A DNA stretch of 64,000 nucleotides from Gammaproteobacteria bacterium (GCA_965277405.1 OZ255726.1:352001-416000), one strand, 5' to 3'. Counted from the first letter of the stretch, positions 3,651-63,754 are shown. Notes: generated by a model from the letters alone, not told the origin. Translations and numbers: made by a program.

Positions 3651-3938
3651 GGAAGCTCTGATTAAGTCGCTGATGGGGCGAGTTAGCCTGCAATTGCTGA
3701 TGATTGCAAAGGCGCTAAGCGCATGACCTAGCTATACGCCAAGGGATGCAACACAGCAAGTACCGCTGCCGCAAACCATAAGTATATTCAACACAACGAC
3801 GGGAAAAAACGCTGCGCTAACGTCGTTGCAGCACTTGGCGACACCCACAAGACCACCAGTATTATCTGCGCACTGTGTCTAGTTATCATCAGCGTTTTTT
3901 CTCCGTCTCGCCCATCATGGACTTAATCAGAGCTTCCC
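3651..3938 (+). mobile_element. MITE family copy (full length)
   Basis: Terminal inverted repeats (TIRs) GGAAGCTCTGATTAAGTC...GACTTAATCAGAGCTTCC; flanks CTAG/CTAA. Confidence 0.9.
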
Positions 3939-3957
3939 TAACAATACTGCTGCCCTG

Positions 3958-4467
3958 CTAGCCTGCTTTGCCACCATCCAAATTATGTAAAAAAGCACTG
4001 TCGCTAATATCCAAGTCAGCAAATGCTTGCAGGCTGACGCCTGCATCTGCGAGCATAAGTTGTACCGCTGTATTGATATCCGCGTGTTGTGGCTTGTAGT
4101 GTAAATAAATAACATGGGTGATACCGACTTGGATGATGGCTTTGGCACAATTCGTGCAGGGGAATTGGGTAGCATACATGGCGGCGTTGTCAAGCTGTGA
4201 ATTGATACTGTTGTAAATAGCGTTTTGTTCTGCATGGACAACGTAGGTATGCTTTGAGCGCATTGGATCTGTGTCAATATCTTGCCAATACTGCGGGTTG
4301 TCATCGTCAAGCCCACGCGGTAAGCCGTTATAGCCAATGCCAATAATTTTATTTTTTGGACCAACGATACACGCGCCATTTTTGGTTTTAGGGTCTTTTG
4401 AGCGTAACGCGGATAATTTTGCTATTGCCATAAAATAGCATTGCCAAGAAAGCGGGCTATCATTCAT
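3958..4467 (-). CDS. dCMP deaminase (ComEB/DCTD family)
   Basis: RSKDP..GACIV..GYNG, HAEQNAI and PCxxC zinc motifs. Confidence 0.9.
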   Translation of the reverse strand: MNDSPLSWQCYFMAIAKLSALRSKDPKTKNGACIVGPKNKIIGIGYNGLPRGLDDDNPQYWQDIDTDPMRSKHTYVVHAEQNAIYNSINSQLDNAAMYATQFPCTNCAKAIIQVGITHVIYLHYKPQHADINTAVQLMLADAGVSLQAFADLDISDSAFLHNLDGGKAG

Positions 4468-4531
4468 GTGGTAGGCTACGATGTTTGGTGATAATCAGCG
4501 GCTCCTCAAGACGTGGTTGAAAAAGAACTAA

Positions 4532-4578
4532 GGAAGCTCTGATTAACTCGCTGATGGAGCGGGTTAATAAGAGCTCCC
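4532..4578. repeat. 47-bp mini-MITE hairpin
   Basis: GGAAGCTCTGATTAACTCGCT-GATGG-AGCGGGTTAATAAGAGCTCCC with CTAA on both sides. Confidence 0.8.
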
Positions 4579-4616
4579 CTAATATATTATTGATATTTAC
4601 TGTATAGGATATAACC

Positions 4617-5396
4617 ATGGTACATATTTTTATCCCGCTTGCTGTGTTCATACTCTGCTCATTATGGCAGGTCTATTTGCCATTTCGTGTTATTAACGGC
4701 GGCACTTCGCGCATCGCACGCAACTTGACTGTCGCGGCATTAGGTATTGTGCTCGGCCGGATATGCTTACCGATTGGGCTTGCGGGTGTAGCATTTATCA
4801 ATCAGCAATGGCAATTTGGCGCGCTCAACCAAATTGCGCTGCCGCTACAATGGCAGTGGGTGATTGGATTTCTGCTGCTTGATTTATCAATATATTGGCA
4901 GCATCGTTGTACCCATACATTGCCGATGCTCTGGAAGCTGCACCGGGTGCATCATATTGATGCGAGTGTCGATGCTTCTACTAGCCTGCGCTTCCACCCA
5001 ATCGAAGCGGGATTGTCCACACTGTATAAAGCCGCAGTCATCTTGATTGTTGGCATAGACGCCACGACAGTTATCACATTTGCCACGTGCTTGACATGCT
5101 TTGCGATGTTTGTCCACACCAATATTATATTGCCGCAGCGCGTAGAGAAAGTACTGCGGTGTGTTATTGTCACCCAACAATTGCATCGGATTCATCACAG
5201 CCAAGTGTTTGCAGAAACCAATAGCAATTACGGCACAATTTTTGTTTACTGGGATTGGTTATTTGGCAGTTATACCGCGCAGGCAACGCTACAACAACAG
5301 CAGCTACAGCTGGGCGTTGCGGGGTGGATGGGCAGTCGCAGTGATGTATGGGGAATATTGCAACACCCGTTTATAACAAGGAATGCAAAACCATGA
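4617..5396 (+). CDS. Sterol desaturase / fatty acid hydroxylase family membrane protein
   Basis: Histidine boxes YWQHRCTH, LHRVHH, HTN and LHRIHH; NSNYG...WDWLFGSY. Confidence 0.88.
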   Translation: MVHIFIPLAVFILCSLWQVYLPFRVINGGTSRIARNLTVAALGIVLGRICLPIGLAGVAFINQQWQFGALNQIALPLQWQWVIGFLLLDLSIYWQHRCTHTLPMLWKLHRVHHIDASVDASTSLRFHPIEAGLSTLYKAAVILIVGIDATTVITFATCLTCFAMFVHTNIILPQRVEKVLRCVIVTQQLHRIHHSQVFAETNSNYGTIFVYWDWLFGSYTAQATLQQQQLQLGVAGWMGSRSDVWGILQHPFITRNAKP

Positions 5397-8869: not shown

Positions 8870-8882
8870 AAATGTCGTCTAA

Positions 8883-9167
8883 GGAAGCTCTGATTAAGTC
8901 GCTGATGGAGCGAGTTTGCTGCAATTGCTGATGATTGCAAGGCGCAAACCGCTAAGCGCATGCCGTAGCATATACGCCAAGGGATGCAACACAGCAAGTA
9001 CCGCTTGTAGGCAAACCATCATATATTCAATAGAAGGCCGGGAAAAAACGCTGTGCTAACGTCGTTGCAGCACTTGATAATACCACCAGTATTATCTGCG
9101 CACTGCGTCTAGTTATCATCAGCGTTTTTTCTCCGTCTCGCCCATCATGGACTTAATCAGATCTTCC
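8883..9167 (+). mobile_element. MITE family copy (full length)
   Basis: Same TIRs; CTAA on the left and (C)CTAA on the right. Confidence 0.9.
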
Positions 9168-9181
9168 CCTAAGTATTAAAT

Positions 9182-9868
9182 TTGGCTACCGTTATTCAAC
9201 AAAATACACTATTTCAGCAGGGGGTTCGCAGCTTTGTGCGGCGGCAAGGCAGGGTCACCAAAGCACAGCAGCGTGCTTTGGACACCTTACGCCAGCAGTT
9301 TGTGCTGGATAACTATCTGCCATTGGATGCAGCAGCAGTATTTGGCAATGACAAACCATTGTGGTTAGATATTGGTTTTGGCATGGGTGAAAGTACTCTA
9401 TACTACGCACTAGCAAATCCAGATATCAATCTGATAGCTGTAGATATCTATCGAGCAGGCATAGGGGCATTATTAATGAAATTAGCCGCGCATAACCTCG
9501 CAAATGTCCGTGTATATGATAACGATGTTGTTAACCTGATAGCGCAACGTCTATTCACTGAAACGACCTTTGCACAAATACTAGTGCTGCATCCAGATCC
9601 ATGGCCGAAGAACAAACACCATAAACGCCGTTTGTTACAAACAACATTCCTCCAGCAGCTAGCGCGACTATTGTCTGCTAGCGGCAAGATTGATTTGCGC
9701 ACCGATGATTGCAGTTATGCAGCGCACATAGACAAAGTTATCGAACAACTCGCAGCAACGCTGCGGATGCAATCTGTAAATCTTGTGCGTCCAAGTACAT
9801 CTTTTTTTAAAAAATCCCAACACAGGCAACACGCAATTTTTGATTATTGCCTCTGCCAGACAACATGA
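9182..9868 (+). CDS. trmB: tRNA (guanine-N7)-methyltransferase
   Basis: [31 protein letters not shown]. Confidence 0.93.
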
Positions 9869-9872
9869 TTAC

Positions 9873-12122
9873 ATGAACCAACCCGTTAGTACACAGCACT
9901 ATCAAATTGAACTTAGCACGTTTGTAGAAAAGGCGTATCTTGATTATTCAATGTATGTAATTTTAGACAGAGCATTACCGCATATTGGCGATGGGTTAAA
10001 ACCAGTTCAGCGCAGAATTGTGTATGCAATGTCTGAACTAGGATTGAAGCATTCAGCAAAATTTAAAAAATCAGCGCGGACAATTGGCGACGTGCTGGGT
10101 AAGTTTCACCCCCATGGTGACCAAGCATGTTACGAAGCCATGGTGTTGTTAGCGCAGGATTTTTCTACCAGGTATCCATTGGTAGAAGGTCAGGGAAACT
10201 GGGGATCTGCTGATAACCCGAAGTCATTTGCAGCGATGCGGTATACCGAAGCGCGGTTACACGCGTATGCAAAAACTTTGCTTGATGAACTCCATCTTGG
10301 CACGGTGCCATGGACTGGCAATTTTGATAATACCATGCAAGAGCCCACGCTACTCCCCGCACAATTACCAAATGTGTTGCTCAACGGCACGACTGGCATT
10401 GCAGTTGGTATGGCAACAGATATCCCCCCGCATAATTTGCAAGAAGTCATGCGCAGTTGCATGTTGTTGCTAAAAAATCCTACAGCAACACTCAGCGAAG
10501 TCATGCAATATATTAAAGGCCCAGACTTTGCCAGTGGTGGTGAGATTATTTCTCCACCATCGGCACTCAAAGAAATGTACACAACAGGGCGCGGGACAAT
10601 ACAACTGCGCGCGGCATATACAATTGAAAAAAGCGGAGATGTGGTCATCCACCAGCTGCCACATCAAACCTCTGGCAGCAAAATATTGGAGCAAATTGCT
10701 GCACAAATGCAATTAAAGAACCTGCCGATGTTGCAAGATATTCGTGACGAATCTGACCACGAACAGCCAATACGTTTGGTGTTAGTGTCACGCAATAAGC
10801 AGCTTGATAGTGCGGCGCTGATGGGTCATTTATTTGCCACAACAGATCTTGAACGCACCCAAAAATGCAACCTCAACATGATTGGGATAAACGGCAAACC
10901 GCAGGTCAAGCCGTTGCTAGCAGTGCTCCATGAGTGGCTAGAATTTCGCCAAAGAACAGTAGTAAACCGCTTACAGCAGCGCTTAGCAGCTGTGCTTAAC
11001 CGACTACATCTGCTCGATGGCTTGTTGATTGCCTATCTTAATATTGATGAAGTTATTGCGATTATTCGCAGCAACGACAAACCCAAGCCGGTGCTAATAG
11101 CACGTTTTACCTTAAGTAATCACCAAGCAGAAACTGTTTTAGAACTGCGCTTGCGCCAGCTAGCAAAGCTTGAAGAGCAAAAAATTCGTGGCGAAATTGC
11201 TGCGCTCAGCCAAGAACGCAAGGAATTAGAGACAACACTAGCGAGCAAGGATTTACAAAAAGAGCTGATGTATACAGAGTTTGAATCGCTAACACAGCGC
11301 CTTAGCGATAGCCGCCGCACACAGCTGGTGCAGCGTGCACCAGCGCAAGCACTGCGCCTTGAAGATACAATAAACAATGATCCTGTGACTATCGTATTGT
11401 CGCAACAAGCGTGGATTCGTGCAGCAAAAGGACATGATTTTAACCCAGAATCGCTGAGTTATAAGCAAGGCGATGGACTGTTAGCCCTCACAGAAGGACG
11501 CAATAATCAGTTCGTCACTTTGTTATCTGGACAAGGGCGAACGTATAGCGTGTTAGCCTCGAAACTGCCGTCAGCCCGCAGCCAAGGAGAACCGCTGTCA
11601 GGGCGATTTGATTTGCCGAATAAAACAGCAATACCCACGATGGTCTGTGCTGCTAACGAGGAATGGTTTTTGCTCGCATGCGACAATGGCTACGGCTATG
11701 TATGTCAGCACCAGGATATGATTGCTGCAAAAAAAGCAGGAAAACAGCAGTTAAGCGTGGCACAGCATAGCAAAGTACTGCCAGCATTAGCGATTGCAAA
11801 CATCCGTGAACAATCTGTCGTGTGTATTACCACGACTGGGCGTATGCTCATCATTGCATTAGCGGAACTACCGCAATTGGTGAAAGGAAAAGGTAATAAA
11901 ATTATACATATTCCAGTAAAACAGCTCAATAATCGCCAAGAATATGTGACCGCACAGTGCATTATCGCAGCAGATCAACACTTAAAACTCACAGCAGGAC
12001 GCCGCGCCTTCACTCTCAAACCTAGTGTCTGGCAATTATATTGCGGTGAACGTGCGCACCGCGGTCAATTGCTACCACAAGGACTGCGGCGAATTCAACA
12101 GGTAGAGGTCATTGCGCAATAG
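9873..12122 (+). CDS. parC: DNA topoisomerase IV subunit A
   Basis: [41 protein letters not shown]. Likely start ATG 9873. Confidence 0.96.
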
Positions 12123-12194
12123 CAATCCAAATCGAAATGTACTATCTTGCTGATCATTCAATTTCTCCATACTTCCTCATTTCACGACTCCATT

Positions 12195-12605
12195 ATGAAT
12201 ATCAAGTCTATAATATTAACGCCAATTATCTTGTGGGCTGTTGCCAACTACGCGGTTGCTGCAGTGGCGGTGACTGATGCTTGGGTGCGCAATAATCCAA
12301 GCGCTGTCCACGCTGGGTATATGACGATTACCAGCGACCGTGATACAGTTTTAATCTCCGCAGCATCAGCAGGTGTAGACTCAATTGAAATCCATGCAAT
12401 GTCGCTGCGAGCAGGCGTGATGCATATGCAACGCATTGCTAAGCTGGCTCTGCCAAAAAACACAGCGGTGCAATTCAAGCCAGGTGGCTATCATTTGATG
12501 ATTTTCGGTAACTTGCAGCAAGCAGACACCTTGCCTATAACCCTCAAATTTGGTAACGGTGAGCAAATCACAGTACAATATGCTATCCATAAACAACACA
12601 ACTAA
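12195..12605 (+). CDS. Periplasmic copper chaperone PCu(A)C
   Basis: DAWVR, EIH.M...GVM.M, KPGGYHLM. Confidence 0.88.
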   Translation: MNIKSIILTPIILWAVANYAVAAVAVTDAWVRNNPSAVHAGYMTITSDRDTVLISAASAGVDSIEIHAMSLRAGVMHMQRIAKLALPKNTAVQFKPGGYHLMIFGNLQQADTLPITLKFGNGEQITVQYAIHKQHN

Positions 12606-12606
12606 T

Positions 12607-13170
12607 ATGCAACACATAGCCGCTGTTCTGCTTGGAATTGTTTTCCTTACAAGTTGTGCAAAAAAGCCGTCACCATATGAAAATCTTGGCGGTGATTTCG
12701 TGCTATCGAGCATTCAAGGACCAGTTGCGCTTAGTGATTTCCATGGTGAGGTGGCGGTGCTTTTTTTTGGTTTTTTAAACTGCCCCGATGTTTGTCCCAG
12801 TACCCTGAGTACCTTATCGAAAGCGCTTGATCTTATTGCCAAGGAAGACCGGCAGAAAATCCAGCCGCTGATGATTGGGCTGGATCATAGCCGAGATACT
12901 CCAGCGGCTATGGCGACATACGTTCGCTATTTTATCCCAGATATGATTGGGTTAAGCGGCAGCAAGCCTGCCTTAAAAAATATCACCAAACGGTATGGGG
13001 CGTACTTCGCAGTTGTGGCTGCGCCAGATTCAAACATAGGGTATACCATTGCGCATACCTCAAAGATATACATTATTGATGGCAACGGTAACATCAGCAA
13101 TATGCTGGATTACACAACTGCACCTACACAGCTTGCTGCAGCAATAGCAGCGGTGATTGACAGCTTGTGA
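12607..13170 (+). CDS. SCO1/SenC family copper protein
   Basis: FGF.NCPDVCP motif, conserved His (YTIAHTS), lipobox LTSC. Confidence 0.9.
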   Translation: MQHIAAVLLGIVFLTSCAKKPSPYENLGGDFVLSSIQGPVALSDFHGEVAVLFFGFLNCPDVCPSTLSTLSKALDLIAKEDRQKIQPLMIGLDHSRDTPAAMATYVRYFIPDMIGLSGSKPALKNITKRYGAYFAVVAAPDSNIGYTIAHTSKIYIIDGNGNISNMLDYTTAPTQLAAAIAAVIDSL

Positions 13171-14240
13171 TTGCGTTGTTGCAGGACTATTTCCATTGGT
13201 GGGTGCAAGCCATTGCGGTGATTATTATTAGTGCTGCCGGCAGCTTTGTTGCCGGCTTCATATTGCGAAAAATCATTCGTCAATCACACAAAACAAAAAC
13301 TTTTTTAGATGAAGTGTTGTTGGAATCCGCACTCGCCCCAGTTAAATTATTCATCCAAGCCATCGGCGCTCATGTTGCTATTTACATTATAGAAAGTGAA
13401 AGACACACAACACTGCTAGCATTTGTGGCACTGCATTTTACATCGGTGTATTGGGTATTACTCGCCTGGTTTATTAGTCGGTTTATCAATAGAATTGAAA
13501 AAAAATACCTGACGTTATACCAGTCTGGCGCACAAATTAAAGGGGATATCACCACCGTTACGGCGATCACAAAAATATCCAGAATTGCCCTGCTATTGGT
13601 AGTTGTATTATACGTACTACAAGAATTTGGTTTTAATATAAATAGCTTACTCGCAGCTGGGGGTATTGGTGGCTTGGCGGTTGGGTTGGCAGCAAGAGAT
13701 CTACTCGCCAATATTTTTGGTGGGGTGATGCTATACTTTGAAAAACCGTTCAAAGTTGGTGACTGGGTGCGCTCACCAGATAGAGATATAGAAGGTACCG
13801 TTGAAGAAATAGGTTTGCGTAGCACGCGCATCCTCACTTTTAAAAGCCGACCGTTATACGTGCCAAATTCAATCTTTACCACGATGACGATTGAAAATGC
13901 ATCGCGCATGACAAATCGCAGAATATATGAAATCATTGGTCTACGCTATGACGATGCGCCGCATATCAAAAGTATAGTGGATGCAATCGAGCAGATGTTG
14001 CGCCAGCATGCAGCTATCGATCAACAACAAACACTCATGGTCAATTTTAACGAATTTGCGCAATCATCGCTCAACATGTTTGTGTATTGTTTTACGCTGA
14101 CAACACAGTGGGAGGAATTTCATAGCGTCAAGCAGGACGTGCTGTTTCAAATGCTGAGTATTATCGCAGCGCACGATGCACAGATTGCCTTCCCAACTTC
14201 AGTCATTCACGTTGATACACTATTGACTCAACAACAATAA
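13167..14240 (+). CDS. MscS-family mechanosensitive channel
   Basis: GGIGGLAVGLAARD, PFKVGDW, GTVEEIGLRST. Confidence 0.92.
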   Translation: MIALLQDYFHWWVQAIAVIIISAAGSFVAGFILRKIIRQSHKTKTFLDEVLLESALAPVKLFIQAIGAHVAIYIIESERHTTLLAFVALHFTSVYWVLLAWFISRFINRIEKKYLTLYQSGAQIKGDITTVTAITKISRIALLLVVVLYVLQEFGFNINSLLAAGGIGGLAVGLAARDLLANIFGGVMLYFEKPFKVGDWVRSPDRDIEGTVEEIGLRSTRILTFKSRPLYVPNSIFTTMTIENASRMTNRRIYEIIGLRYDDAPHIKSIVDAIEQMLRQHAAIDQQQTLMVNFNEFAQSSLNMFVYCFTLTTQWEEFHSVKQDVLFQMLSIIAAHDAQIAFPTSVIHVDTLLTQQQ

Positions 14241-14250
14241 GGTATTGCCG

Positions 14251-16989: not shown

Positions 16990-17025
16990 ATTCAGCCAAG
17001 TCAAACGCATGATACGCTATCTGTA

Positions 17026-17119
17026 GGAACCTCTGCTGCAGTTGCTAATGCAACGAGTTTGCCTGCAAGCGCAGATGATTGCAAGGCACAAGCGGCGCAT
17101 GCCGTAGCATATACGCCAA
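17026..17119 (+). repeat. Degenerate left part of MITE
   Basis: GGAACCTCTG...GAGTTTGCCTGCAA...GATGATTGCAAGGC...GCGCATGCCGTAGCATATACGCCAA. Confidence 0.75.
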
Positions 17120-17164
17120 CAGCTGCAGCACAGCCGCAAACCGTTGATATTAATAAATATATGA

Positions 17165-49053: not shown

Positions 49054-49057
49054 TTAG

Positions 49058-51195: not shown

Positions 51196-51341
51196 ACAAA
51201 TGCTTTTGTATTGACATAATTTTGGCATTATACACATCAGTTGCAAAAATCAACATAATTTGCGCCAAACAATACGACACAACAGTTCATTTGCGCCATA
51301 TTGCAGCCTGCCACTATTAAATATATTGTAGGGTCAGATAG

Positions 51342-51630
51342 GGAAGCTCTGATTAAGTCGCTGATAGAGCGAGTTTGCCTGCAATTGCTGATGATTGCAA
51401 GGCACTAAGCGCATGCCGTAGCATATACGCCAAGGGACGCAACACAGCGAGTACCGCTGCCGCAAACCCAAAGTATATTCAACAGATGAACGGGAAAAAA
51501 CGCTGCGCGCCGTCGTGGCAGCATTTGCCAACACCCACAAGAAGACCACCAGTATTATCTGCGCACTGAGTCTAGTTTTCAGCAGTGTTTGTTCTCCGTC
51601 TCGCCCATCATGGCCTTAATCAGAGTTTAC
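51342..51630 (+). mobile_element. MITE family copy overlapping the alr 3' end
   Basis: Left TIR intact; right TIR degenerate (GCCTTAATCAGAGTTTAC). Confidence 0.87.
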
Positions 51631-52696
51631 ATTGCTGTGGATCATGGATATACACGTATTCAACGCGTGTTCCCAAGCAGGCAAATAGCGTATTCACTAA
51701 GGTATTGGCCTGTATGGCAACTTGGGTAACAGCAATAGTATTTCCCCATAGCTCAACGCTATCTCCTATCGCTATTCTGTCGATATTGCTACAGTCAATG
51801 CTCAGCGTATCCATTGAAACCAGACCAATAATTGCAGCTATACCTTTGGCATGGGCGACAGATGCCCCAGTGATTTCTCTTGGATAGCCGTCACCGTAGC
51901 CACAGCCAACTGTGGCTACGACTGTGCGCCGCTGTGCTGTCCATGTTGCCCCATAGCCAACGCTCTCTCCTGCGTCGATTGTACGGATTGCAATTATTTT
52001 TGCATGGAGTGACATCACAGGCCGCAAATCAACACCCGCGTCATTCAGACAATGCGAGACCCCGTACAACATAATCCCTGGGCGGGTTGGCGCATTGCTA
52101 TCTGGCAACATTGCAGTCAAAATTGCTGCTGAGTTTGCTGTGCTGATGGGTAGGCCATATGCTTGCAATGATTCAATATGACGCAGTTGCATTGCATGGA
52201 ATGGATGCTCTGGTTTTTCAGAACAGGCAAAATGGGTAAATAGTCCGCTGACTTGAATATTATTATTGCTACATGTTTGCAATGCTGCTGGCACTGCTTC
52301 CAGTGAATAGCCGAGCCGATTCATTCCAGTTGATATTTTGAGCCAGATGGGTAAAAGCCCGCTGTTAGCATTGAGCAACGCCAATTGGAAATCGCTATTG
52401 ATTACCAGGGTAATAGCATGTTGATATGCTAGCTTTATTTCTTGTAGCGAAAATCCACCTTCTAAGGCTATCAGTGGTTGGCTAATACCTGCCGTGCGCA
52501 GCTCTACGGCTTCTGCAACTGTTGCAAGTGCAAAACCATCGGCAATATCTGCGATTGCTCGCGCACATTGGATTGCTCCATGTCCGTAGGCATTTGCTTT
52601 GAGTACCGCCCAAGCAGCAGTGCTTTGTTGTTGTTTAGCGACTAAATAATTATGCCGAATTGCTTGTATATTGATGTATGCATGTACTGTGCGCAT
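51620..52696 (-). CDS. alr: Alanine racemase
   Basis: AVLKANAYGHG, TGMNRLG, THFA, RPGIMLYG, GYGDGYPR, SMD. Confidence 0.95.
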   Translation of the reverse strand: MRTVHAYINIQAIRHNYLVAKQQQSTAAWAVLKANAYGHGAIQCARAIADIADGFALATVAEAVELRTAGISQPLIALEGGFSLQEIKLAYQHAITLVINSDFQLALLNANSGLLPIWLKISTGMNRLGYSLEAVPAALQTCSNNNIQVSGLFTHFACSEKPEHPFHAMQLRHIESLQAYGLPISTANSAAILTAMLPDSNAPTRPGIMLYGVSHCLNDAGVDLRPVMSLHAKIIAIRTIDAGESVGYGATWTAQRRTVVATVGCGYGDGYPREITGASVAHAKGIAAIIGLVSMDTLSIDCSNIDRIAIGDSVELWGNTIAVTQVAIQANTLVNTLFACLGTRVEYVYIHDPQQCKL

Positions 52697-52707
52697 AATG
52701 CGATGTG

Positions 52708-54240
52708 TTACCCTCTGTACACACCAATGTTGCTATTATCTTCTGACTGTAGTTTTTTTGTAAATGTTCCTACGGAATAGGATCCATCGTCATCAAAATC
52801 ATCAGCCATATGCTCCATGTCCATTTGATCTGGAAGTGGATCAGAAAACTTAGACCTAGTGTTTACGTAATTAAGATATACCGAACCAACGGGACCATTG
52901 CGTTGCTTGCCGATAACAATTTGTGCTTTTCCTTTTAACTTAGGCACATTCTTTTCATACACTTCCGCACGATAAATAAACATAATTAGATCAGCGTCTT
53001 GTTCGATTGATCCTGAATCACGAAGGTCAGACATTTGCGGAGTTTTATCACCGCGTTTCTCAAGTTCTCGATTTAATTGTGACAGCACCACCACTGGAAC
53101 ATTAAACTCGCGAGCAATCATTTTAAGCATGCGGGTATCATGAGAAACCTGAGTTGTCCTGTTGGCTTGCGAAAGTTCTGGAGCCGATTGCATCAATTGT
53201 AAATAGTCAATCATCACCAAACCAAGCTCCACACCTTTACATAGCATCCGTTTTACCTTACGGATCCGCGAGCGGATTTGAGTTGTTGATAATGCGTTTG
53301 AATCGTCAATAAGAATGTTATAGCTATCCAATGCCGCCATGCTATCGATCAAACTACTTGTATCTTTATCGTTAATTTCTCCCGTGCGCAGTTTATCGTG
53401 ATCGACATTGGCAAGCGAAGACAACATGCGCATAATCAGTTGGTCGCCAGGCATCTCTAAACTGAAAAGTATCGATGCTGGCACTGGTTGATTGATTTGC
53501 TGGTAACGGGCACACATATTTTCGATAATGTTAAGCGCAAATGTTGTTTTACCCATACTTGGTCTAGCAGCAATGACGACCAGCTCGCCTGGGTGCAAGC
53601 CGGTTGTCATGGCATCTAGTCGTTTAAAACCCATTGGTAGGCCAGTAATCCCATTCGGGTTATCTTTGAGCGCTGCCAGCTTTTCCCACGCGATTTTACT
53701 AAATTCATTTATTTTGCGCGGACCATCAGCTCCATCTGCTGCGGTTGCAATACTAAATATTTTACTATCCGCAATATCCAAAATATCTTCAGTGCTGCGG
53801 CTGCTACCCCCACTGTTTACAGGTTTATCAATCAAGTTTACTATTGCAGCACAGGCGTCGAGCAAAGCACGCAGTTTTGCTTTGTCTGCAATGATTTTTG
53901 CATAACTTAAGGTATTTTCAGAACCAGGGGTGTAAAAGCATAAATCAGTTAATAGCTCAAGGGTAATGCTATGGCCTGATGGCGCGTTAGTTTGTGCTAG
54001 GGCATTGACCGTAATCGGGTCAGCGGCTTGCCCACTATTCTTTAATGCTTGAATAAGCTTGAAAATTTCTTCATGGTTTGGGCTAACAAAACTATTTGCT
54101 TGCACTAAACCATAGATATCGTCAAATAAATCGTTGTTATTTAACAGGCTACCAAGGACCGCTTTTTCAGCATCAGCTGATGCTGGCGTCTTTGGTGCTG
54201 GTTGTTTCTGCGGTTGTGTATCTTTAGGAGTATCTGACAT
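52708..54240 (-). CDS. dnaB: Replicative DNA helicase
   Basis: AARPSMGKT, FSLEM, DYLQLM, LSQLNR, SDLRDSGSIEQDAD, KQRNGP. Confidence 0.97.
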   Translation of the reverse strand: MSDTPKDTQPQKQPAPKTPASADAEKAVLGSLLNNNDLFDDIYGLVQANSFVSPNHEEIFKLIQALKNSGQAADPITVNALAQTNAPSGHSITLELLTDLCFYTPGSENTLSYAKIIADKAKLRALLDACAAIVNLIDKPVNSGGSSRSTEDILDIADSKIFSIATAADGADGPRKINEFSKIAWEKLAALKDNPNGITGLPMGFKRLDAMTTGLHPGELVVIAARPSMGKTTFALNIIENMCARYQQINQPVPASILFSLEMPGDQLIMRMLSSLANVDHDKLRTGEINDKDTSSLIDSMAALDSYNILIDDSNALSTTQIRSRIRKVKRMLCKGVELGLVMIDYLQLMQSAPELSQANRTTQVSHDTRMLKMIAREFNVPVVVLSQLNRELEKRGDKTPQMSDLRDSGSIEQDADLIMFIYRAEVYEKNVPKLKGKAQIVIGKQRNGPVGSVYLNYVNTRSKFSDPLPDQMDMEHMADDFDDDGSYSVGTFTKKLQSEDNSNIGVYRG

Positions 54241-54268
54241 GGGTCTCCAAAATATAGGGTAAACGAAC

Positions 54269-54345
54269 TGGTGCGCCCGGAGGGATTCGAACCCCCGACC
54301 TACTGGTTCGAAGCCAGTTGCTCTATCCGGCTGAGCTACAGGCGC
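54269..54345 (-). tRNA. tRNA-Arg (TCG)
   Basis: GCGCCTGTAGCTCAGCCGGATAGAGCA-ACTGG-CT TCG AA-CCAGT-AGGTCGGGGGTTCGAATCCCTCCGGGCGCACCA. Confidence 0.93.
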
Positions 54346-54354
54346 TCGTGTCGC

Positions 54355-55242
54355 TTATTGGGCATAACCATATTTTTTGATTTGTTTCATGAAGGAAAAA
54401 AACTCACTATCTGGTGCTACTACAAAAATATCACTCTTATCTTTAAATGTTGCTTCGTAGGCTTTTAACGAACGATATAATTCAAAGAAATCTGAATTTT
54501 GGCTATATGCATCAGCATATGTTTGTGCTGCCAACGCATCACCTTTACCACGCAATATTTCAGATTGACGGTATGCATCAGACTCGATGATAAGTTTCTG
54601 TTTATCCGCTTTAGCTCGAATAGCTTCAGATTTTTCACGACCTTCAGATCGCAGTTCTCGCGCTAACCGCTCGCGTTCAGAAATCATCCGCTCATATACT
54701 GAGCGACTCACTGTTTCTGGCAGGTTTAATTTGCGAACACGGACATCAATAATGCGGACACCAAGTTCACGGCGGATTGTTGTATCTAGTGCAGTTGTGA
54801 GCTCGCTCATCGCCAAATCGCGATCGCCTGATATTACTTCATTAACTGTCCGTTCACCATATTGGTTACGCAGACCAGTATTTACACGGGCGGCAATCAA
54901 CCGCTCCGCATTGCTGACATTGCCATTTGTCGCTGTATAAAATACTGGTACTTTATCAATTTTCCATTTAACATACGTATCCACAACTAAAGCTTTCTTC
55001 TCTTTAGTCAGATATTCTTCAGGTCGTGCATCAAGGGTTTGTACTCGGCTATCAAATTTGATCACTTGGTCAGCAAAAGGCACTTTTATGTGCAAGCCAG
55101 GCAGCACATTGTCGTGAGTAACTTCTCCGAAACGCAGCACAACAGCACGCTGTCGTTCGTCGACAACAAATAACACTTGTGAGGCGATGAGTGCTGCGAG
55201 AGCCAAAATAACGAGTAAAAAAACTGGAAATGAGCGAGACAT
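54355..55242 (-). CDS. hflC: FtsH modulator HflC
   Basis: SPFH domain, LVVD.YVKW.I, VYERM..ER, F...YRSL.AY. Confidence 0.95.
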   Translation of the reverse strand: MSRSFPVFLLVILALAALIASQVLFVVDERQRAVVLRFGEVTHDNVLPGLHIKVPFADQVIKFDSRVQTLDARPEEYLTKEKKALVVDTYVKWKIDKVPVFYTATNGNVSNAERLIAARVNTGLRNQYGERTVNEVISGDRDLAMSELTTALDTTIRRELGVRIIDVRVRKLNLPETVSRSVYERMISERERLARELRSEGREKSEAIRAKADKQKLIIESDAYRQSEILRGKGDALAAQTYADAYSQNSDFFELYRSLKAYEATFKDKSDIFVVAPDSEFFSFMKQIKKYGYAQ

Positions 55243-56483
55243 TAGCGTTGCTGTGATTGAGGGGAAATCGTAGGGTTGGCGCTGCGTTGGCGCGAACGTA
55301 GTTCATCAACAATACGATCAGTAAGGAACTCTACTTCAGAGTTTGAGAGAGAACCTGCGGATACGGGAGAATTGCTGCTTGAGCCACTGCTAATAGACCT
55401 ACCGCCTTGGCGCATTATTTGATCAAGCGGTATATATAGCATGTTGTTACTCCCGTTCTTGGTATCGATAACAATCTTACTCGTGCTACTAAACACTTGT
55501 TGCATTGTATCTAAATACAGTCGTCGCGTCATGATGACAGGTGCTTTTTCATATTCACTTAAAATCTGCACAAAGCGATTGGCTTCACCTTTGGCACGCG
55601 CAATGACACTTTCTTTATACCCGCGCGCATCTTCAATGATACGTTGCGCTTGTCCACGTGCTTCTGGAACAATACCGTTGGCGTATGCAGTTGCTTCGTT
55701 CACCACCCGCACCTTATCTTCACGCGCTTTTATAACATCATCAAACGCTGGTTTTACTGGGTCTGGCGGCTTGGCTTCAAGGATGTTCACCCCACGAATT
55801 TCTAAGCCAGTACCATACGTATCAAGATACTGCTGGACACGTTCACGGATACTGCTGGCAATGCGAGCACGGCCGCTGGTAATAACATCGTCAAGTGTGG
55901 AGCTGCCAACAACATGACGCAGCGCACTATCTGTTGCAACACCTAGGCTCTGCTCAGGATTACGGACATTAAGTACAAAATCTTTGCCGCTGCCAATTTT
56001 GTATTGTACCTGTAAGGTGATTTGCACGATGTTTTCATCTTCTGTCAGCATATCACCACGAAAATTTTGATCACGAACCCGTGTTTGATTGATCCGTGTT
56101 ACATCGTCAATGAGTGGCGGCTGCCAACGTAGCCCTGGAAATAACTCGCTATGATATTTGCCAAAGCGCAATACCACCCCACGTTCCTGCTCGTTAATGA
56201 TGTAAAAGCCACTCATTACCCAAATAATACCAATCAGAGCAATCGCTGCCAATACTAATGCAGTTGTTGGCAAGGTAAACCCACCCGAACCAGAATTATT
56301 TTTTGGCGGCTGACCGCCGTTGCTATTACCTGACCCAGATTGTTTGCGATTATTTGGTTTATTAAACAATCCGCCAACGCCTGAACGCCATTTATCAAGC
56401 AGTTCTTCTAAATCAGGTGGTCCTTGATTCCCTGAATTTTTATCCTTGTCACCCCAAGGGTTTTGATCTTGATTTGAGTTCAT
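55242..56483 (-). CDS. hflK: FtsH modulator HflK
   Basis: PWG...GPPDLEE, MLTEDENIV, AFDDVIKARED, RLYLDTM. Confidence 0.95.
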   Translation of the reverse strand: MNSNQDQNPWGDKDKNSGNQGPPDLEELLDKWRSGVGGLFNKPNNRKQSGSGNSNGGQPPKNNSGSGGFTLPTTALVLAAIALIGIIWVMSGFYIINEQERGVVLRFGKYHSELFPGLRWQPPLIDDVTRINQTRVRDQNFRGDMLTEDENIVQITLQVQYKIGSGKDFVLNVRNPEQSLGVATDSALRHVVGSSTLDDVITSGRARIASSIRERVQQYLDTYGTGLEIRGVNILEAKPPDPVKPAFDDVIKAREDKVRVVNEATAYANGIVPEARGQAQRIIEDARGYKESVIARAKGEANRFVQILSEYEKAPVIMTRRLYLDTMQQVFSSTSKIVIDTKNGSNNMLYIPLDQIMRQGGRSISSGSSSNSPVSAGSLSNSEVEFLTDRIVDELRSRQRSANPTISPQSQQR

Positions 56484-56495
56484 ACGAGTCGTGCG

Positions 56496-56741
56496 TTATG
56501 GTGTGTTTATTTCTTCAAGCGGCAGAGAGCTCAAATCAACATTTTGAGCTGGGACAACAGTTGAAATTGAATGTTTATATACAAGTTGGGTAATGGTGTT
56601 TTTGAGCAACAAGCAATATGCGTCGAAAGCTTCAATCTTTCCTTGTAGTTTAATGCCGTTGGCAAGAAAAATATTCACGTCTGTTTGGTCTATTCGTAAG
56701 GCGTTGAGATACGGTTCTTGCAACGTTACTTGCTTGGTCAT
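56496..56741 (-). CDS. hfq: RNA chaperone Hfq
   Basis: [30 protein letters not shown]. Confidence 0.96.
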
Positions 56742-56779
56742 GTGAGTTCCATTTGTTGTATTTATAATCTAAAAAGCTT

Positions 56780-57748
56780 CTATTCTAATTGTGAAGCCCG
56801 CTGAATTGTATCAAGGGCTTTTGATAAAGCAAAAGCATCGTGTAATTTTACAGTATCAATCCAGTTGATGTTGTCCATTGCCCGCAGCCAAGTGTATTGG
56901 CGTTTGGCAAACTGACGCGTTGCAAACAATGTTTGCTCGAACATACATTGTGTTGACAATGAGGTTTTCAAGCCTGCAAATATCTGTCGATAGCCTATTG
57001 CACGACGAACTGGTTGACAAATACCCATAGGGAACTGTTGCTGTAATTGGATGACTTCAGCAACAAAGCCAGCAGAGAACATTTGCTTAAGCCGCTGTTC
57101 GATTCGTAAATGCAATTGCACTCGCGGCGTATCTAAAGCAAAGCATTGAATATTAAATGGAGCTGGCCTCTTTGGATGCGCTAATAAATACAGTGACATT
57201 GGCGTCTGTGTGGTATGGATAACTTGCAGCGCGCGGCAAATGCGTTGGCTATCATTTGGTTGTAATTGCTTTGCATATACAGGGTCTGCTGCTTGTAATG
57301 CCGCAAACAGTAACGGTAATTCGCCATTGTCTATCTGCTGTGTAAGTTGTTGTGCATACTGAGGGTCACTTGCTGGCAAAGCTGACAATCCTCGTATCAG
57401 CGCATTGAGATATAGCATACTACCACCAACAAATACGGGGACTCGTTGCTGCGCAAACACATGCTGACAAATCGATATGGCATCTGCATAAAATTGACCA
57501 ACATTATAGGCGGTAGTGACGTCTCGAATGTTGACAAGCTGGAGTGCAGCTGCCGCGATTTCCTTGTCACTGGGTTTTGCAGTTCCAATGTTTGTTTGTT
57601 TGTAGACCAGCATAGAGTCTGCGTTGATGAGCTGAAAGCGTTTATTAGCGGCAAGAGCAAACGACAAGCTACTCTTGCCTGTTGCGGTGGCACCAACGAT
57701 GGCGATTGCTGTAGAGCGGTTATTTGTTTTTTTCATCATCATCATCAT
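56780..57748 (-). CDS. miaA: tRNA dimethylallyltransferase
   Basis: GATATGKS, DSM.VY...IGTAKP, VGGSMLY, AKRQ.TW. Start lies somewhere in the run of five ATG codons. Confidence 0.93.
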   Translation of the reverse strand: MMMMMKKTNNRSTAIAIVGATATGKSSLSFALAANKRFQLINADSMLVYKQTNIGTAKPSDKEIAAAALQLVNIRDVTTAYNVGQFYADAISICQHVFAQQRVPVFVGGSMLYLNALIRGLSALPASDPQYAQQLTQQIDNGELPLLFAALQAADPVYAKQLQPNDSQRICRALQVIHTTQTPMSLYLLAHPKRPAPFNIQCFALDTPRVQLHLRIEQRLKQMFSAGFVAEVIQLQQQFPMGICQPVRRAIGYRQIFAGLKTSLSTQCMFEQTLFATRQFAKRQYTWLRAMDNINWIDTVKLHDAFALSKALDTIQRASQLE

Positions 57749-57761
57749 ATAGAGGCGGCTC

Positions 57762-58919
57762 ATGACCATATCTGTTTTTCATTATCCAACGCACATTGTA
57801 TTTGGTAATGGTGCCGTGCAACAGCTCCCCCAACTATTTCGCAACTCACCCATAACATTGCCGCTATTAGTAACTGATGTCAACTTGCAACACAGCCAAG
57901 GGTTTGCATTTGTACAACGTACATTTCAAGGTGCAGCTATATTTATATTAGCAGCGCCAGACCCTACGCTTGAGCATCTTAACGCTGGGATTGAAACGTT
58001 TTTAGCCAACAAATGCGACGGTGTTATTGCGTATGGAGGTGGATCGAGTCTTGATATTGGCAAGATGATAGGGTTTATGCAGCAACAAACGCTATCAGTT
58101 TGGAAATTTGAAGATTTTGGTGACAATTGGCAGCAGGCCGACTCACGGGTTATTGCGCCGACGATTGCCATCCCAACAACGTCTGGCACAGGTTCAGAAG
58201 TAGGACGCGCTGCCGTCCTAACAAATGTAGACGAACAAATTAAAAAAATTTTATTCCACCCAAAAATGATGCCAATCGTCACTATCGCAGACCCAGAATT
58301 AACCCAAACAATGCCGAGGCGCGTAACTCTAGGTACTGGGATGGATGCGTTTGCGCATAACTTTGAGGCGTATTGCGCGCGTGGTTATAATCCGCTCGCT
58401 GACGCATTAGCGCTAGAAGGGATGCGCTATATTCGACACGCGCTTGAGCGTGTATTGCAAGACCCCAACGATTTACCAGCGCGGGGAAAAATGATGATGG
58501 GGTCGATTTTTGGTGGCGCGGCATTCCAAAAGGGGCAAGGCGCCATCCATGCATTGTCGCATCCAATCGGCGCCTTATTTCACTGTCATCACGGCATGAC
58601 CAATGGCACATTATTGCCATATGTAATGGCGTATAACAAGCAAGTAATAACTGGGAAAATAGACAGAGTTGCTCACGCGTTAGCGTTAGAGAATAGCGAG
58701 TTTACCACAGTGCTTGATTGGTTGAATAAATGGCGGATTCAACTTGGTGTTGCGCATACTTTGGGTGAACTTGGAGCGCCAGCTGGGCATGATGCCAAGA
58801 TAGCTATACGTTCGTTGAGCGACCCGTCAGCACGCAGCAATCCAAGGGAATTAACAAGACAAGGTGCTAGCAATATATTGGCAGCCGCACGCGCCGGCGA
58901 CGTCGGCTATGTTATATAA
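57762..58919 (+). CDS. Iron-containing alcohol dehydrogenase
   Basis: GGGSSLD, PTTSGTGSE, GMDAFAH..E, HALSH, HHG. Confidence 0.92.
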   Translation: MTISVFHYPTHIVFGNGAVQQLPQLFRNSPITLPLLVTDVNLQHSQGFAFVQRTFQGAAIFILAAPDPTLEHLNAGIETFLANKCDGVIAYGGGSSLDIGKMIGFMQQQTLSVWKFEDFGDNWQQADSRVIAPTIAIPTTSGTGSEVGRAAVLTNVDEQIKKILFHPKMMPIVTIADPELTQTMPRRVTLGTGMDAFAHNFEAYCARGYNPLADALALEGMRYIRHALERVLQDPNDLPARGKMMMGSIFGGAAFQKGQGAIHALSHPIGALFHCHHGMTNGTLLPYVMAYNKQVITGKIDRVAHALALENSEFTTVLDWLNKWRIQLGVAHTLGELGAPAGHDAKIAIRSLSDPSARSNPRELTRQGASNILAAARAGDVGYVI

Positions 58920-58965
58920 CGTTGCGATACTCATCACCAACAGCAAACCATAAATCCTGCTTTAA

Positions 58966-59012
58966 GGAACATTTGATTAAGTCGCTGATGGAGCGAGTTA
59001 AGCAGAGCTTCC
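58966..59012. repeat. 47-bp mini-MITE hairpin
   Basis: GGAACATTTGATTAAGTCGCTGATGGAGCGAGTTAAGCAGAGCTTCC between convergent genes. Confidence 0.78.
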
Positions 59013-59044
59013 TAAGAAATGCTCTCGACAATTATCGTAATTTG

Positions 59045-59923: not shown

Positions 59924-60013
59924 GCACTTTCCCCAAAATTCTTAATTTTAACACTATAGCTAAACTGATATGAAGTAATACAATTACCACTCCAAATAAT
60001 AAGGGGCCTCTAA

Positions 60014-60296
60014 GGAAGCTCTGATTAAGTCCATGACGGGCGAGACGGAAAAAAACGCTGATGATAACTAGACGCAGTGCGCAGATAATACTGGTGGTAT
60101 TATCAAGTGCTGCAACGACGTTAGCGCAGCGTTTTTTCCCGGCCTTCTATTAATATATGATGGTTTGCCTACAAGCGGTACTTGCTGTGTTGCATCCCTT
60201 GGCGTATATGCTACGGCATGCTCCTGCGGAATGCGCCTTGCAATCATCAGCAATTGCAGGCAAACTCGCTCCATCAGCGACTTAATCAGAGCTTCC
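60014..60296 (-). mobile_element. MITE family copy (full length)
   Basis: TIRs intact; flanks CTAA/CCAA. Confidence 0.9.
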
Positions 60297-60407
60297 CCAA
60301 TTAACTTACTGATGGTGCGATGATTGCATCGCGTATACTTTAGAATACACTTAAGGTATGCGATACACGCGAAATTTACCCTCAACCCCATACAGGACTG
60401 GTAAAAA

Positions 60408-61455: not shown

Positions 61456-61457
61456 CG

Positions 61458-61964
61458 ATGGCAATTCCTATTCGTAGGAGAGTAATTACAGTTAGTAAGA
61501 AATTTTCCCAGTTTGCGAATGCTATCGGTGTGCTCTGCTTCCTTGTGGTATTTATTGGATTCATCATTCAAATTTTCTATCGTTACGTACTCAACGACCC
61601 GATACGCTGGACAGAAGAGATGATCATGATCGGATTTATTTGGTCAGTCTTCTGGGCTAATGCATTCATGGTGCCGATCAATCAGCATGTCTCATTAGAT
61701 GTTGTGTACGACATAGCATCAGCCAAAGTAAAGCGTGTCCTAGCAATTATATCGATGGCAGCGGTCATCATTGCCTTTATAACTTTATTTCCAGCTACAA
61801 TCGACTACCTTGATTTTCTTACTCGTAAAAAAAGCCCAGTGTTACGACTCCCAATGCATTGGATTTACGCCTGCTATTTATTATTTATTGTTGGCTTTAC
61901 TGTGCAAGCTGGAAAGCGGCTGTTGCGCCTCACAAGTTCTAACTGGCGTAAAAATCTTTCATAG
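61458..61964 (+). CDS. dctQ: TRAP transporter small permease
   Basis: RYVLN.P..WTEE, HVSLD; four TM segments. Confidence 0.9.
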   Translation: MAIPIRRRVITVSKKFSQFANAIGVLCFLVVFIGFIIQIFYRYVLNDPIRWTEEMIMIGFIWSVFWANAFMVPINQHVSLDVVYDIASAKVKRVLAIISMAAVIIAFITLFPATIDYLDFLTRKKSPVLRLPMHWIYACYLLFIVGFTVQAGKRLLRLTSSNWRKNLS

Positions 61965-61975
61965 AAACACTGCCG

Positions 61976-63280
61976 ATGGGATTCATCGAAGATAACGCTC
62001 TCCTGCTTATGGTTTGTATCTTGATTGTCACAACAATTTCAGGGCTGCCTTTAGGAATTGCCATGATCGCTTCCAGCGTATTCTACTTACTAATGTCTGG
62101 CAGCGATGTAGGACTTGCTGCAGAACATGTGCTGAACGGAACGTTTGGTAATTTTATAGCTTTAGCAGTCCCTTTATTTATTTTTGCTGCAAATATTATG
62201 AATGCGGGGAAAATAACCGATAGGTTGCTGACGTTTGCTCTGACTCTGATAGGCGGAGTTCCTGGCGGTCTTGCACAAGTAAATATTCTCACGTCTTTAA
62301 TATTTTCTGGAATGTCGGGTTCTGCAATTTCAGATGCGGCTGGCGTCGGTAAAATTATCACTAATATGATGACTAAAGACGGACGTTATCCCCGCGGTTT
62401 TGCAGGAGCATTAACTGCAACAACAGCGGTCGTGGGTCCTATCTTCCCACCTTCCATCCCGATGGTTTTCTATGCGCTGATCTCATCGACATCAGTTGGT
62501 GCGTTGTTCATTGCAGGTATTGTGCCTGCATTTATGGTATGTCTTGCGCTTGGTGTCGCCGTATACATAATGTCCAAAATACGCGGGTTTCCAATTGAAA
62601 CAGGCGGTACACTCCGTGCGCTGCCATTCGCCTTTATCAAAGCATTTCCTGCATTGTTGATGCCAGTCATTCTGCTTGGAGGCATCTATTCAGGTGTTTT
62701 TACACCGACAGAAGCAGCTGCAGCCGCATCTTTGTATGCACTATTACTTGCGGTTTTTGCCTACAGAGTTTTGGGAATAATAGGATTTTGGAACATCACG
62801 GTCGACACTGTACGCACTACGGCAGTCGTGACACTCGTGCTTGGTGGCGCGTTTATATTTAACTATGTAATTACTGTAGAACAACTGCCACAAAACATCT
62901 TCGCAATCTTTGACTCATGGGATTTATCCAGAATACAATTTTTACTATTGCTGAATCTACTCTTTTTAATCCTCGGATGTTTCCTTGACGTATCAACAAT
63001 TATGCTGGTTGTTACGCCTTTATTTATCCCAAGTGCGGTGAAGTTAGGCATTGATTTGCACTTCTTGGGGGTGGTATTAGTGTTTAACATGATGATTGGG
63101 CTTATCACACCTCCATACGGGATATTACTCTACATTATTAAAGCACTGAACGGGATACCAATTAGGGAAATGGTTCGAGAAGTGTGGATATTTATAGCCA
63201 TTCTGATTGCACTTTTACTTTTTTTTACTGTATCTCCTGATTTTATTCTCTGGTTACCGCGCTTGGTTGGAGCTCTATAA
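61976..63280 (+). CDS. dctM: TRAP transporter large permease
   Basis: GGLAQVN, SGMSGSA..D, PPSIP, FTPTEA, GLITPPYG. Confidence 0.93.
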   Translation: MGFIEDNALLLMVCILIVTTISGLPLGIAMIASSVFYLLMSGSDVGLAAEHVLNGTFGNFIALAVPLFIFAANIMNAGKITDRLLTFALTLIGGVPGGLAQVNILTSLIFSGMSGSAISDAAGVGKIITNMMTKDGRYPRGFAGALTATTAVVGPIFPPSIPMVFYALISSTSVGALFIAGIVPAFMVCLALGVAVYIMSKIRGFPIETGGTLRALPFAFIKAFPALLMPVILLGGIYSGVFTPTEAAAAASLYALLLAVFAYRVLGIIGFWNITVDTVRTTAVVTLVLGGAFIFNYVITVEQLPQNIFAIFDSWDLSRIQFLLLLNLLFLILGCFLDVSTIMLVVTPLFIPSAVKLGIDLHFLGVVLVFNMMIGLITPPYGILLYIIKALNGIPIREMVREVWIFIAILIALLLFFTVSPDFILWLPRLVGAL

Positions 63281-63474
63281 AACAAGCGAATACACGTTAT
63301 TATCCCATGTGTAAATATTAACCCCGATCGTTAATGATAGTTCCCACTAGCAAACGGCAGTAACAAAAGAACAATTTCAACACATCAATTTGCGCATACT
63401 CCTAAAACCTTCGCAATTAGCGCTATAGCAAGCACTGTGGATTAATAACTGAGGTTATCAGCTGATAACGCTAA

Positions 63475-63754
63475 GAAACCGCTGATTAAGTCGCTGATGG
63501 AGCGAGTTTGCCGGCAATTGCTGATGATTGCAAGGCGCATGCCGTAGCATATACACCAGGGGATGCAACACAGCAAGTACCGCTGCCGCAAACCCAAAGT
63601 ATATTCAACAGCAGGACGGGAAAAAAGCGGTACTAACGTCGTTGCTGCACTTGGCAATACCCGCAAGACCCACCAGTTTTATCCGCGCACTGTGCTTAAG
63701 TATCATCAGCGTTTTTTCTCCGTCTCGCCCATCATGGACTTAATCAGAGCTTCC
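63475..63754 (+). mobile_element. MITE family copy (full length)
   Basis: CTAA duplication; left TIR slightly degenerate. Confidence 0.9.

Follow-up and report, generated by a model that had tools for sequence, protein, structure and literature searches.

The 64,000-nucleotide stretch of DNA analysed here (hereafter the window; positions 352001-416000 of contig G000:C1, a single-contig genome of 2,174,577 bases with 44.8% G+C) is crowded with copies of a MITE (miniature inverted-repeat transposable element) of about 290 nt. A preliminary description had noted that such repeats lie on both sides of nearly every accessory gene and had proposed that they import and shuffle single-function cassettes. 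Our analysis points with good confidence to another explanation: copies of an IS5-type MITE inserted independently of one another into intergenic space that tolerates them, and the pattern is not one of gene capture. Capture, if true, would have been a novel means of building up accessory genes in bacteria; what the tests show instead is a familiar transposon burst, its shape set by the places that tolerate insertions.

These repeats are genuine small mobile elements, copies of a non-autonomous transposon with terminal inverted repeats and IS5-like ends. A profile built from 10 full window copies and run with nhmmer over the whole genome (window hits being counted at E ≤ 1e-3) gave 489 strand-wise hits that merge into 314 loci, of which 162 span the whole model, 137 keep one end only and 15 neither end. 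Their combined length is 66,178 bases (3.0% of the genome). Of these loci, 17 lie in the window, 10 of them full, 5 partial and 2 short (about 52 nt), a density about 1.8 times the genome mean. The core of the terminal inverted repeats, GGAAGCTCTGATTAAG, occurs with up to 3 mismatches 325 times in forward and 314 times in reverse orientation, and 151 pairs of such ends lie 250-340 nt apart. The length is below transposase-coding size, and the copy number is high. Full copies are 94-98% identical to the one at 8880-9177, and the profile found no match in 30 relatives, all of them related at class level only. Repeat coordinates in the preliminary description were good, 12 of 14 boundaries being element ends in both the repeat search and the nhmmer hits; the bracket around a "peptide-XRE" unit (36806/37647) is not confirmed, its two sides consisting of a 17-nt scrap and of 8 nt (TTCCCTAA), neither of which is an nhmmer hit at E ≤ 1e-3. 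A short form of about 52 nt, in which the left 33 nt are joined to the right end at the same internal junction, was seen 11 times genome-wide, including 4529-4581 and 58963-59015; with a perfect CTAA duplication around one copy, this form may constitute a separate mobile sub-family.

The four bases outside the MITE ends are mostly YTAR. Among the 151 full copies, left and right flanks are directly identical in 62, compared with 23.7 ± 3.9 in 5000 shuffles, while reverse-complement pairs are depleted (7, with 22.7 expected). The excess of the former and the depletion of the latter indicate that the target duplication is direct and 4 bp long. When both flanks are canonical YTAR they are identical in 50 of 69 full copies. 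Within the window, 5 of the 12 elements with both ends have exact flanks of their own, and so does the outer member of a nested pair described below. It had been claimed that several copies have non-matching flanks, as expected after recombination between copies. The mismatches exist, in the other 7 of the 12: five differ at one position, and two (the elements at 8883 and 49058) are offset by one base, their flanks matching or differing at one position once shifted. Such flanks do not separate mutation from recombination. As a small effect, the target duplication overlaps a called stop codon in 23 of 176 elements, as against 7.9% of free YTAR sites.

A probable source of transposase is present in the same genome. 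The same ends recur 1.2 kb apart in about 40 pairs, which enclose PF01609 transposase frames (70 PF01609 matches in the genome; cited score 107.9 bits). One 315-aa frame of this 1.2-kb insertion sequence (IS) scores 330 bits on the NCBIfam model NF033581, "IS5 family transposase", whose cut-off is 140. Judged by these matches, the 1.2-kb element belongs to the IS5 family and has a predicted DDE transposase of the IS5 type. Only about 21-27 nt per end are common to MITE and IS. Nearly all of 74 IS flanks are YTAR, left and right being equal in 14 of 37 copies; the figure to set beside it, about 12 of 37, is a rough chance estimate for which no shuffle was run. In three places (genome positions 1419945-1423607, 1248329-1250769 and 2029324-2031773) the 1.2-kb element is present as head-to-tail copies with exactly 4 nt between them, as though newly inserted copies entered the duplicated YTAR beside an existing end, and the nested MITEs of the window have the same habit. 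Taken together, MITE and IS form a well-defined IS5-type pair, in a lineage without a relative nearer than class in the collections searched.

The clearest single case of later insertion is the ATP-binding cassette (ABC) transporter operon, whose genes the preliminary description had taken for separate MITE-bounded cassettes (37647/38906/41249). In the spacer between the binding-protein and permease genes sits a nested pair of MITEs, an older outer copy split by a younger full inner copy. Searching species genomes with the binding protein yielded 80 foreign loci, and the gene order was printed for 45 of them; in these 45, binding protein, permease and ATPase are consecutive wherever the locus reaches and the match passed the length filter. 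In the best of these loci, L109 (from a record of Sneathiella sp.), the DNA matches window positions 37806-38907 and 39495-41194 and is unbroken on its own side. Both L109 and a second locus, L102, have one TTAG exactly where the window has TTAG, 593 nt of MITE and TTAG again. The MITE profile, searched at E ≤ 1, found nothing in the operon's 80 foreign loci, nor in the 3 loci searched for a betaine/choline-type (BCCT) transporter gene that is also present in the window. Unbroken homologues with a single TTAG mean that the two supposed cassettes are one operon into which MITEs were inserted later; the site is thus a clean, base-exact example of a MITE landing in an operon spacer.

These data also bear on the capture idea in its explicit form, in which the IS5 transposase moves whole MITE-gene-MITE composite units and accessory genes travel as cassettes. 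There are reasons to consider it: each full copy has both ends, an IS5-family transposase is encoded in about 40 copies, a unit with a dCMP-deaminase gene exists twice with MITE sequence at its ends, and the ABC operon and the BCCT gene look foreign. MITE-bounded composites are also known elsewhere; parts of the literature describe the TIME-COMPs (PMC4133298, PMC13367494) and an integron flanked by MITEs, with a 439-bp MITE pair around integrons of Acinetobacter (PMC3934969). A composite that moved as a unit should, however, bear a new target duplication at its outer ends. In 67 neighbouring element pairs lying 200-5000 nt apart in the genome, the outer flanks match in 11, the chance rate being 14%, whereas for the two members taken singly the flanks match in 28 and 34 of the 67; an outer match with neither member's own flanks matching is seen in only 3. 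Outer-end duplication is therefore at chance and the members mostly keep duplications of their own, which leaves the suggestion that MITE pairs serve as composite-transposon ends without support. Of the eight brackets listed in the preliminary description, the dCMP-deaminase one alone recurs in a self-blast, and this second copy lacks a whole left MITE (about 14-16 nt of it are present) and has a right MITE with unlike flanks; the other seven have no second copy in the low-copy list (megablast at 80% identity, high-scoring segment pairs of at least 400 nt and less than half MITE). The ABC operon, in turn, was split by a later insertion at an exact empty site, and no MITE stands in its 80 foreign loci. 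Since bracketed genes also carry no compositional signal and include core genes, as reported below, we regard composite capture as highly improbable, and as largely refuted for this window.

Contigs of three public short-read runs from one study that cover the stretch break at every MITE, and the listed joints join MITE to MITE. Such joints are repeat artefacts, so that no empty allele or excised circle can be read from them. In a low-depth run (X3), contigs identical to the window turn to unlike sequence inside genes at 44296, 45742, 54421 and 56644, which could reflect a rearranged relative or assembly noise.

Genes were called with a home-made caller of open reading frames (ORFs) based on codon usage, which gave 1922 ORFs, or 1851 after removal of those inside MITEs. 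Across the genome, MITE occupancy rises from 3% of overlapping gene pairs to 8% of native gaps of 1-25 nt and 17-32% of longer gaps, and by gap type it is 26% for convergent, 23% for divergent and 12% for tandem neighbours. In the window, 13 of 25 gaps above 40 nt are occupied versus 3 of 29 gaps of 40 nt or less. The long core blocks that the preliminary description had given as free of the repeat (9182-16989, 28717-31990 and 51630-58900) indeed hold no copy in any of the three. Their gaps are of 38 nt or less, save one of 90 nt and one of 114 nt with a tRNA gene, and the blocks amount to runs of tightly packed genes.

Any stretch between two MITEs is trivially bracketed, and those of the window hold parC, topA, rmuC, secG-tpiA, acpP-fabF and dnaB-hfq. 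Genome-wide, 47 single-gene brackets were counted, with 42.5, 43.9 and 46.7 expected under three null models (P 0.23, 0.32 and 0.52). The bracketing of nearly every accessory gene, taken as a special pattern, is thus close to what random placement yields; at one repeat per three genes, single-gene brackets arise by themselves, a caution for similar observations. Occupancy and permutation tests agree that intergenic space explains the placement, which is half of what the preliminary description had named as speaking against its own proposal. A domain scan covered 40 of the 46 single-gene brackets that do not hold IS genes (it omitted two small ORFs and four window genes scanned separately). Among these 40 are core genes (gyrA, rpsT, clpP, gltA, argG, rnhB, lpxH, miaB, mnmC, psd and surA) and accessory ones, for instance cas9, dctP, two potD-like genes, betA and gabT. 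The type II Cas9 gene (genome 1404093-1407362; TIGR01865, 648 bits) has a MITE in the gap on each side. Bracketed genes differ from the rest neither in codon score (medians 0.168 and 0.162, not significant) nor in G+C content at third codon positions (0.418 and 0.41, not significant). Without a compositional signal or, once intergenic space is allowed for, a bracket excess, with core genes among the bracketed, and with the empty site in the ABC operon, an integron-like device that imports single-function cassettes finds no support in these data.

Some results weigh against independent insertion. The gene calls come from the home-made caller and not from a curated annotation. Long gaps in the window are occupied twice as often as those of the genome (13 of 25 compared with 221 of 924), which is not explained beyond regional density. 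After removal of IS genes and of ORFs shorter than 100 aa, single-gene brackets number 57 where 46.4 are expected (P 0.04, unstratified); across the nulls used with this stricter gene set the expectation is 46-52, and P becomes 0.07, 0.14 and 0.21 with gap type, gap size and regional density held fixed, which leaves room for a small real excess of single-gene brackets, at most. Two-gene segments are also frequent in the first gene set (49, with 36 expected; P about 0.01, uncorrected for six statistics). Exact flank matches are absent in 89 of the 151 full copies and, with four bases, mutation, imprecise end calls and recombination are inseparable as the cause. Of 120 ends of low-copy duplications, 44 (37%) have a repeat no more than 30 nt away, compared with 10% of random genome positions and 30% of random intergenic positions; the blocks are not independent, and the support is weak. 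Lastly, the ABC operon and the BCCT gene look foreign, so the statement that bracketing falls on accessory genes holds in part here.

Duplication at the repeats is nevertheless real in single cases. Segment 3926-4565 of the window, the dCMP-deaminase unit, has a 99.8% identical copy over 640 nt in the self-blast. It lies at genome 347224-347863, next to tRNA-Arg(CCT) and 8.7 kb upstream, and three of the four ends of this duplication lie in MITE sequence. The right MITE of the second copy is flanked by CTAA and TTAG, the short MITE of the window by CTAA on both sides; the former looks like a crossover product and, with the lack of a whole left MITE, fits recombination better than transposition. 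Three potD-like genes, 96-99% identical, form a tandem array (genome 128032-132689); every spacer contains a MITE, and the array has a MITE fragment on its left border. A 7.2-kb cassette of five genes is duplicated at 95% identity (genome 533775-540920 and 1681265-1688449), and each of the four ends coincides with a MITE fragment or has one no more than 80 nt away, the fragments differing between the loci. Overall, repeat-bounded duplication is weak as a trend, and passages of a review give it as a known behaviour of dispersed repeats (PMC10969869). The notion of portable homology accordingly holds for one of the eight listed brackets, the duplicated dCMP-deaminase unit, and for two further cases elsewhere in the genome.

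A larger role for recombination can be conceived, in which MITE-bearing DNA or excised circles integrate at resident copies, much like a translocatable unit, and in which this is the main route by which genes arrive. The unlike flanks of the second dCMP-deaminase copy, the potD-like array and the 7.2-kb cassette are what would be cited for it. All three cases, however, are duplications within the genome and not imports, and since the MITE was found neither in the 30 class-level relatives nor in the 80 foreign ABC loci, incoming DNA would seldom carry it. The exact duplications around single copies, in the window and among canonical YTAR flanks, argue in the same direction, and duplication ends are barely nearer to repeats than random intergenic positions are. 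It would be surprising if arrival had mainly followed this route. As a separate observation, the left edge of the window and the 5.6 kb before it (genome 346400-357000) are a mosaic of recent internal duplications: 2.85 kb share 98.9% identity with a segment next to an IS at 1369228-1372075, TonB-receptor paralogues are 86-93% identical to three other loci, and the dCMP-deaminase unit is present twice.

Where the foreign-looking genes came from is a question apart from the repeats. The ABC proteins are 73-91% identical to those of Sneathiella-type (alphaproteobacterial) genomes and the BCCT protein is 64-67% identical to that of the same five genomes, while the core protein TopA reaches 46-48%; DctM, the TRAP protein that was compared, has no close Sneathiella-type homologue (34-39%). 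Only one of the 30 class-level relatives matches the ABC binding protein, at 29% identity, and in that genome no permease stands beside it within the locus. At the DNA level the BCCT gene resembles Sneathiella-type loci within its coding region only, and the limits of any transferred piece therefore could not be set. Protein comparison thus suggests that the ABC operon and the BCCT gene were probably acquired horizontally, and nothing ties their arrival to the MITEs. That the bracketed genes are accessory is therefore right for these two, and that they were imported is probably so, but it was not the MITEs that brought them in. With alr as query, a scan of metagenomes returned 42 loci, with 45% identity at best over a short fragment and at most 39% over most of the protein, too distant for synteny to be read beyond dnaB-alr.

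What the copies do once inserted is a further matter. Full MITEs between same-strand genes stand opposite to the genes in 56 cases and along them in 29 (P 0.0045), as at 41246-41534 and 46848-47139; the bias holds for leading- and lagging-strand genes, and none is seen relative to replication. Folding energies are far below those of shuffled sequences on both strands (z -7.6 and -8.6), the right half of a full copy (e.g., 8883-9173) can fold into a hairpin of about 90 nt with U6 behind it on either strand, like a two-way terminator, and a promoter-like ATGATA-17-GATAAT site recurs inside the copies. One might then suppose that MITEs were recruited as boundary modules whose hairpin and U-run end transcription and whose inner promoter restarts it, selection keeping copies at the borders of units. 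Terminator-like roles of MITEs are raised in part of a review (PMC10969869), and the nested pair in the ABC operon lies in the favoured orientation. However, the hairpin went unflagged in a simple terminator scan, the youth of the copies accounts for their conservation, and the two-to-one bias could follow equally from selection against the harmful orientation. We consider such recruitment unlikely, although less so than the two routes of gene arrival weighed above; it concerns the effect of copies and not their arrival, and so does not compete with independent insertion.

Independent insertion can be put as a sequence of steps. The 1.2-kb IS5-family transposase, with which the MITE shares its ends, would move the MITE in trans; each copy inserted singly at a YTAR site and duplicated those four bases, with the genes already in place. 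Copies would persist only where the harm is slight: mainly in longer gaps that separate transcription units, and rarely in tight operons. As about a quarter of the long gaps of the genome, and half of those in the window, were filled, short transcription units would come to be flanked by copies on each side, and bracketing would be a by-product of density and gene packing. Near-identical copies further offer homology for recombination and have given rise to occasional segmental duplications that end in MITE sequence, the dCMP-deaminase unit included, and the ABC operon and the BCCT gene were probably acquired horizontally, independently of the MITEs. The few repeat-bounded duplications and the orientation bias, with its possible effects on transcription, remain useful leads. 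They may be combined in the idea that the MITE swarm of this deep-branching, IS-laden lineage is a scaffold for cassette turnover without a dedicated recombinase, crossovers regularly copying and moving units (the dCMP-deaminase unit, the potD-like array, the 7.2-kb envelope cassette) while the oriented terminator and promoter would keep them expressed; we hold this to be slightly less likely still than the recruitment of boundary modules.

The pair can be placed among known systems. Ends starting with GGAAG in inverted orientation, a direct 4-bp YTAR duplication and a partner matching DDE_Tnp_1 and NF033581 are shared with the IS5 group and the MITEs derived from it. The IS5 element of E. coli has ends GGAAGGTGCGAATAAG and a YTAR target. 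IS5-derived MITEs are likewise small, numerous and intergenic, but there are two differences: the MITE studied here has an interior without relation to the IS, which means that it is no simple deletion derivative, and its copies are very dense for a genome of 2.2 Mb (314 loci, 3%). Sections of a review describe dense intergenic repeats whose short, structured copies number in the hundreds, are inserted into one another, may affect transcription and act as recombination hot spots (PMC10969869). Hundreds of structured intergenic copies, and nesting, are also what our MITE has in common with Correia elements of Neisseria, RUP, BOX and SPRITE of the pneumococcus and the QMITEs of Coxiella. These families (Correia being compared from general background) go with other transposase families and other targets.

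Two non-autonomous copies around a cargo are a likeness to the TIME-COMPs of Tn3-derived TIMEs, to the "integron mobilization units" and to the Acinetobacter pair. Units of this type are known by their outer-end duplication and their recurrence in new contexts; here, the outer ends are at chance and only one bracket recurs, with signs of recombination. With integrons (intI and attC) the likeness is one of outward look only, single genes being parted by a recurring repeat. The repeats here are transposons with their own target duplications, the order and orientation of the would-be cassettes are not uniform, one cassette boundary falls inside an operon, and no logic of a site-specific recombinase is apparent, no search aimed at intI or attC having been made.

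Table 1. MITE copies and neighbouring features of the window (window coordinates; model positions refer to the MITE profile).
Feature	Position	Strand	Evidence and context
Full MITE	3648-3941	+	nhmmer model 1-290, E 2e-94; flanks CTAG/CTAA; between TonB-dependent receptor and dCMP-deaminase genes
dCMP-deaminase unit, 640 nt	3926-4565		Last 16 nt of left MITE, gene, first 37 nt of short MITE
dCMP-deaminase gene	3958-4467	-	Pfam PF00383
Short MITE, ~52 nt	4529-4581	+	Left 33 nt and right end; flanks CTAA/CTAA
Full MITE	8880-9177	+	nhmmer E 8e-103; between HAD/ispF genes and trmB
Partial MITE	17025-17154	+	Model 3-135; between M16 peptidase gene and secG
Full MITE	20911-21206	+	Abuts tRNA gene 20837-20909; upstream of purN
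Partial MITE	32400-32564	+	Model 1-172; between acpP and radA
17-nt scrap of MITE/IS end	36806-36823		Read in sequence; not scored by nhmmer
Partial copy of 41627-41784	37491-37648	+	83% identical; XRE-like gene tail and first ~30 codons of RNase H gene; cut off at TTCCCTAA
ABC-transporter operon	37909-41206	+	Binding protein 37909-38892, permease 39508-40425, ATPase 40412-41206; Pfam; interrupted by MITEs
Nested MITE pair	38903-39497	-	In 21-nt spacer between binding-protein and permease genes
Outer nested MITE	38903-39049 and 39343-39497	-	Model 155-290 and 1-151; flanks TTAG/TTAG
Inner nested full MITE	39051-39342	-	Model 1-290; flanks TTAG/TTAG
Full MITE	41246-41534	-	40 nt past ATPase stop codon; flanks TTAG/TTAG
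Full MITE	46848-47139	-	Between rmuC and HAD hydrolase gene; flanks TTAG/TTAG
Partial MITE	47902-48092	+	Model 108-290; overlaps last 32 nt of HAD hydrolase frame
Broken gene	48113-49199	-	In-frame stop 48648-48650; frame change near 48402-48409; no Pfam match
Full MITE	49055-49351	+	nhmmer; downstream of BCCT gene
BCCT transporter gene	49451-51058	-	Domain matches and protein comparison
Full MITE, degenerate right end	51339-51632	+	Upstream of BCCT gene; abuts alr 3' end
Short MITE, ~52 nt	58963-59015	+	Between Fe-ADH and DHDPS-family genes
Full MITE	60011-60299	-	Divergent region between DHDPS-family gene and dctP
Full MITE	63472-63758	+	After dctM; flanks CTAA/CTAA

The remaining features of the window are collected in Table 1. 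A gene previously described as a "barrel pseudogene" is indeed broken, but a barrel fold was not confirmed, the gene having no Pfam match. The C-terminal residues of the HAD hydrolase may be MITE-derived, as the last 32 nt of its frame (47902-47933) lie within a truncated MITE. Two copies of a junction between the tail of the XRE-like gene and the RNase H gene (37491-37648 and 41627-41784) stand on opposite sides of the ABC operon. At the scale of the genome, the cumulative GC skew is lowest at 463,690 and highest at 2,164,044, and these very unequal arms may reflect large rearrangements in a repeat-rich genome.

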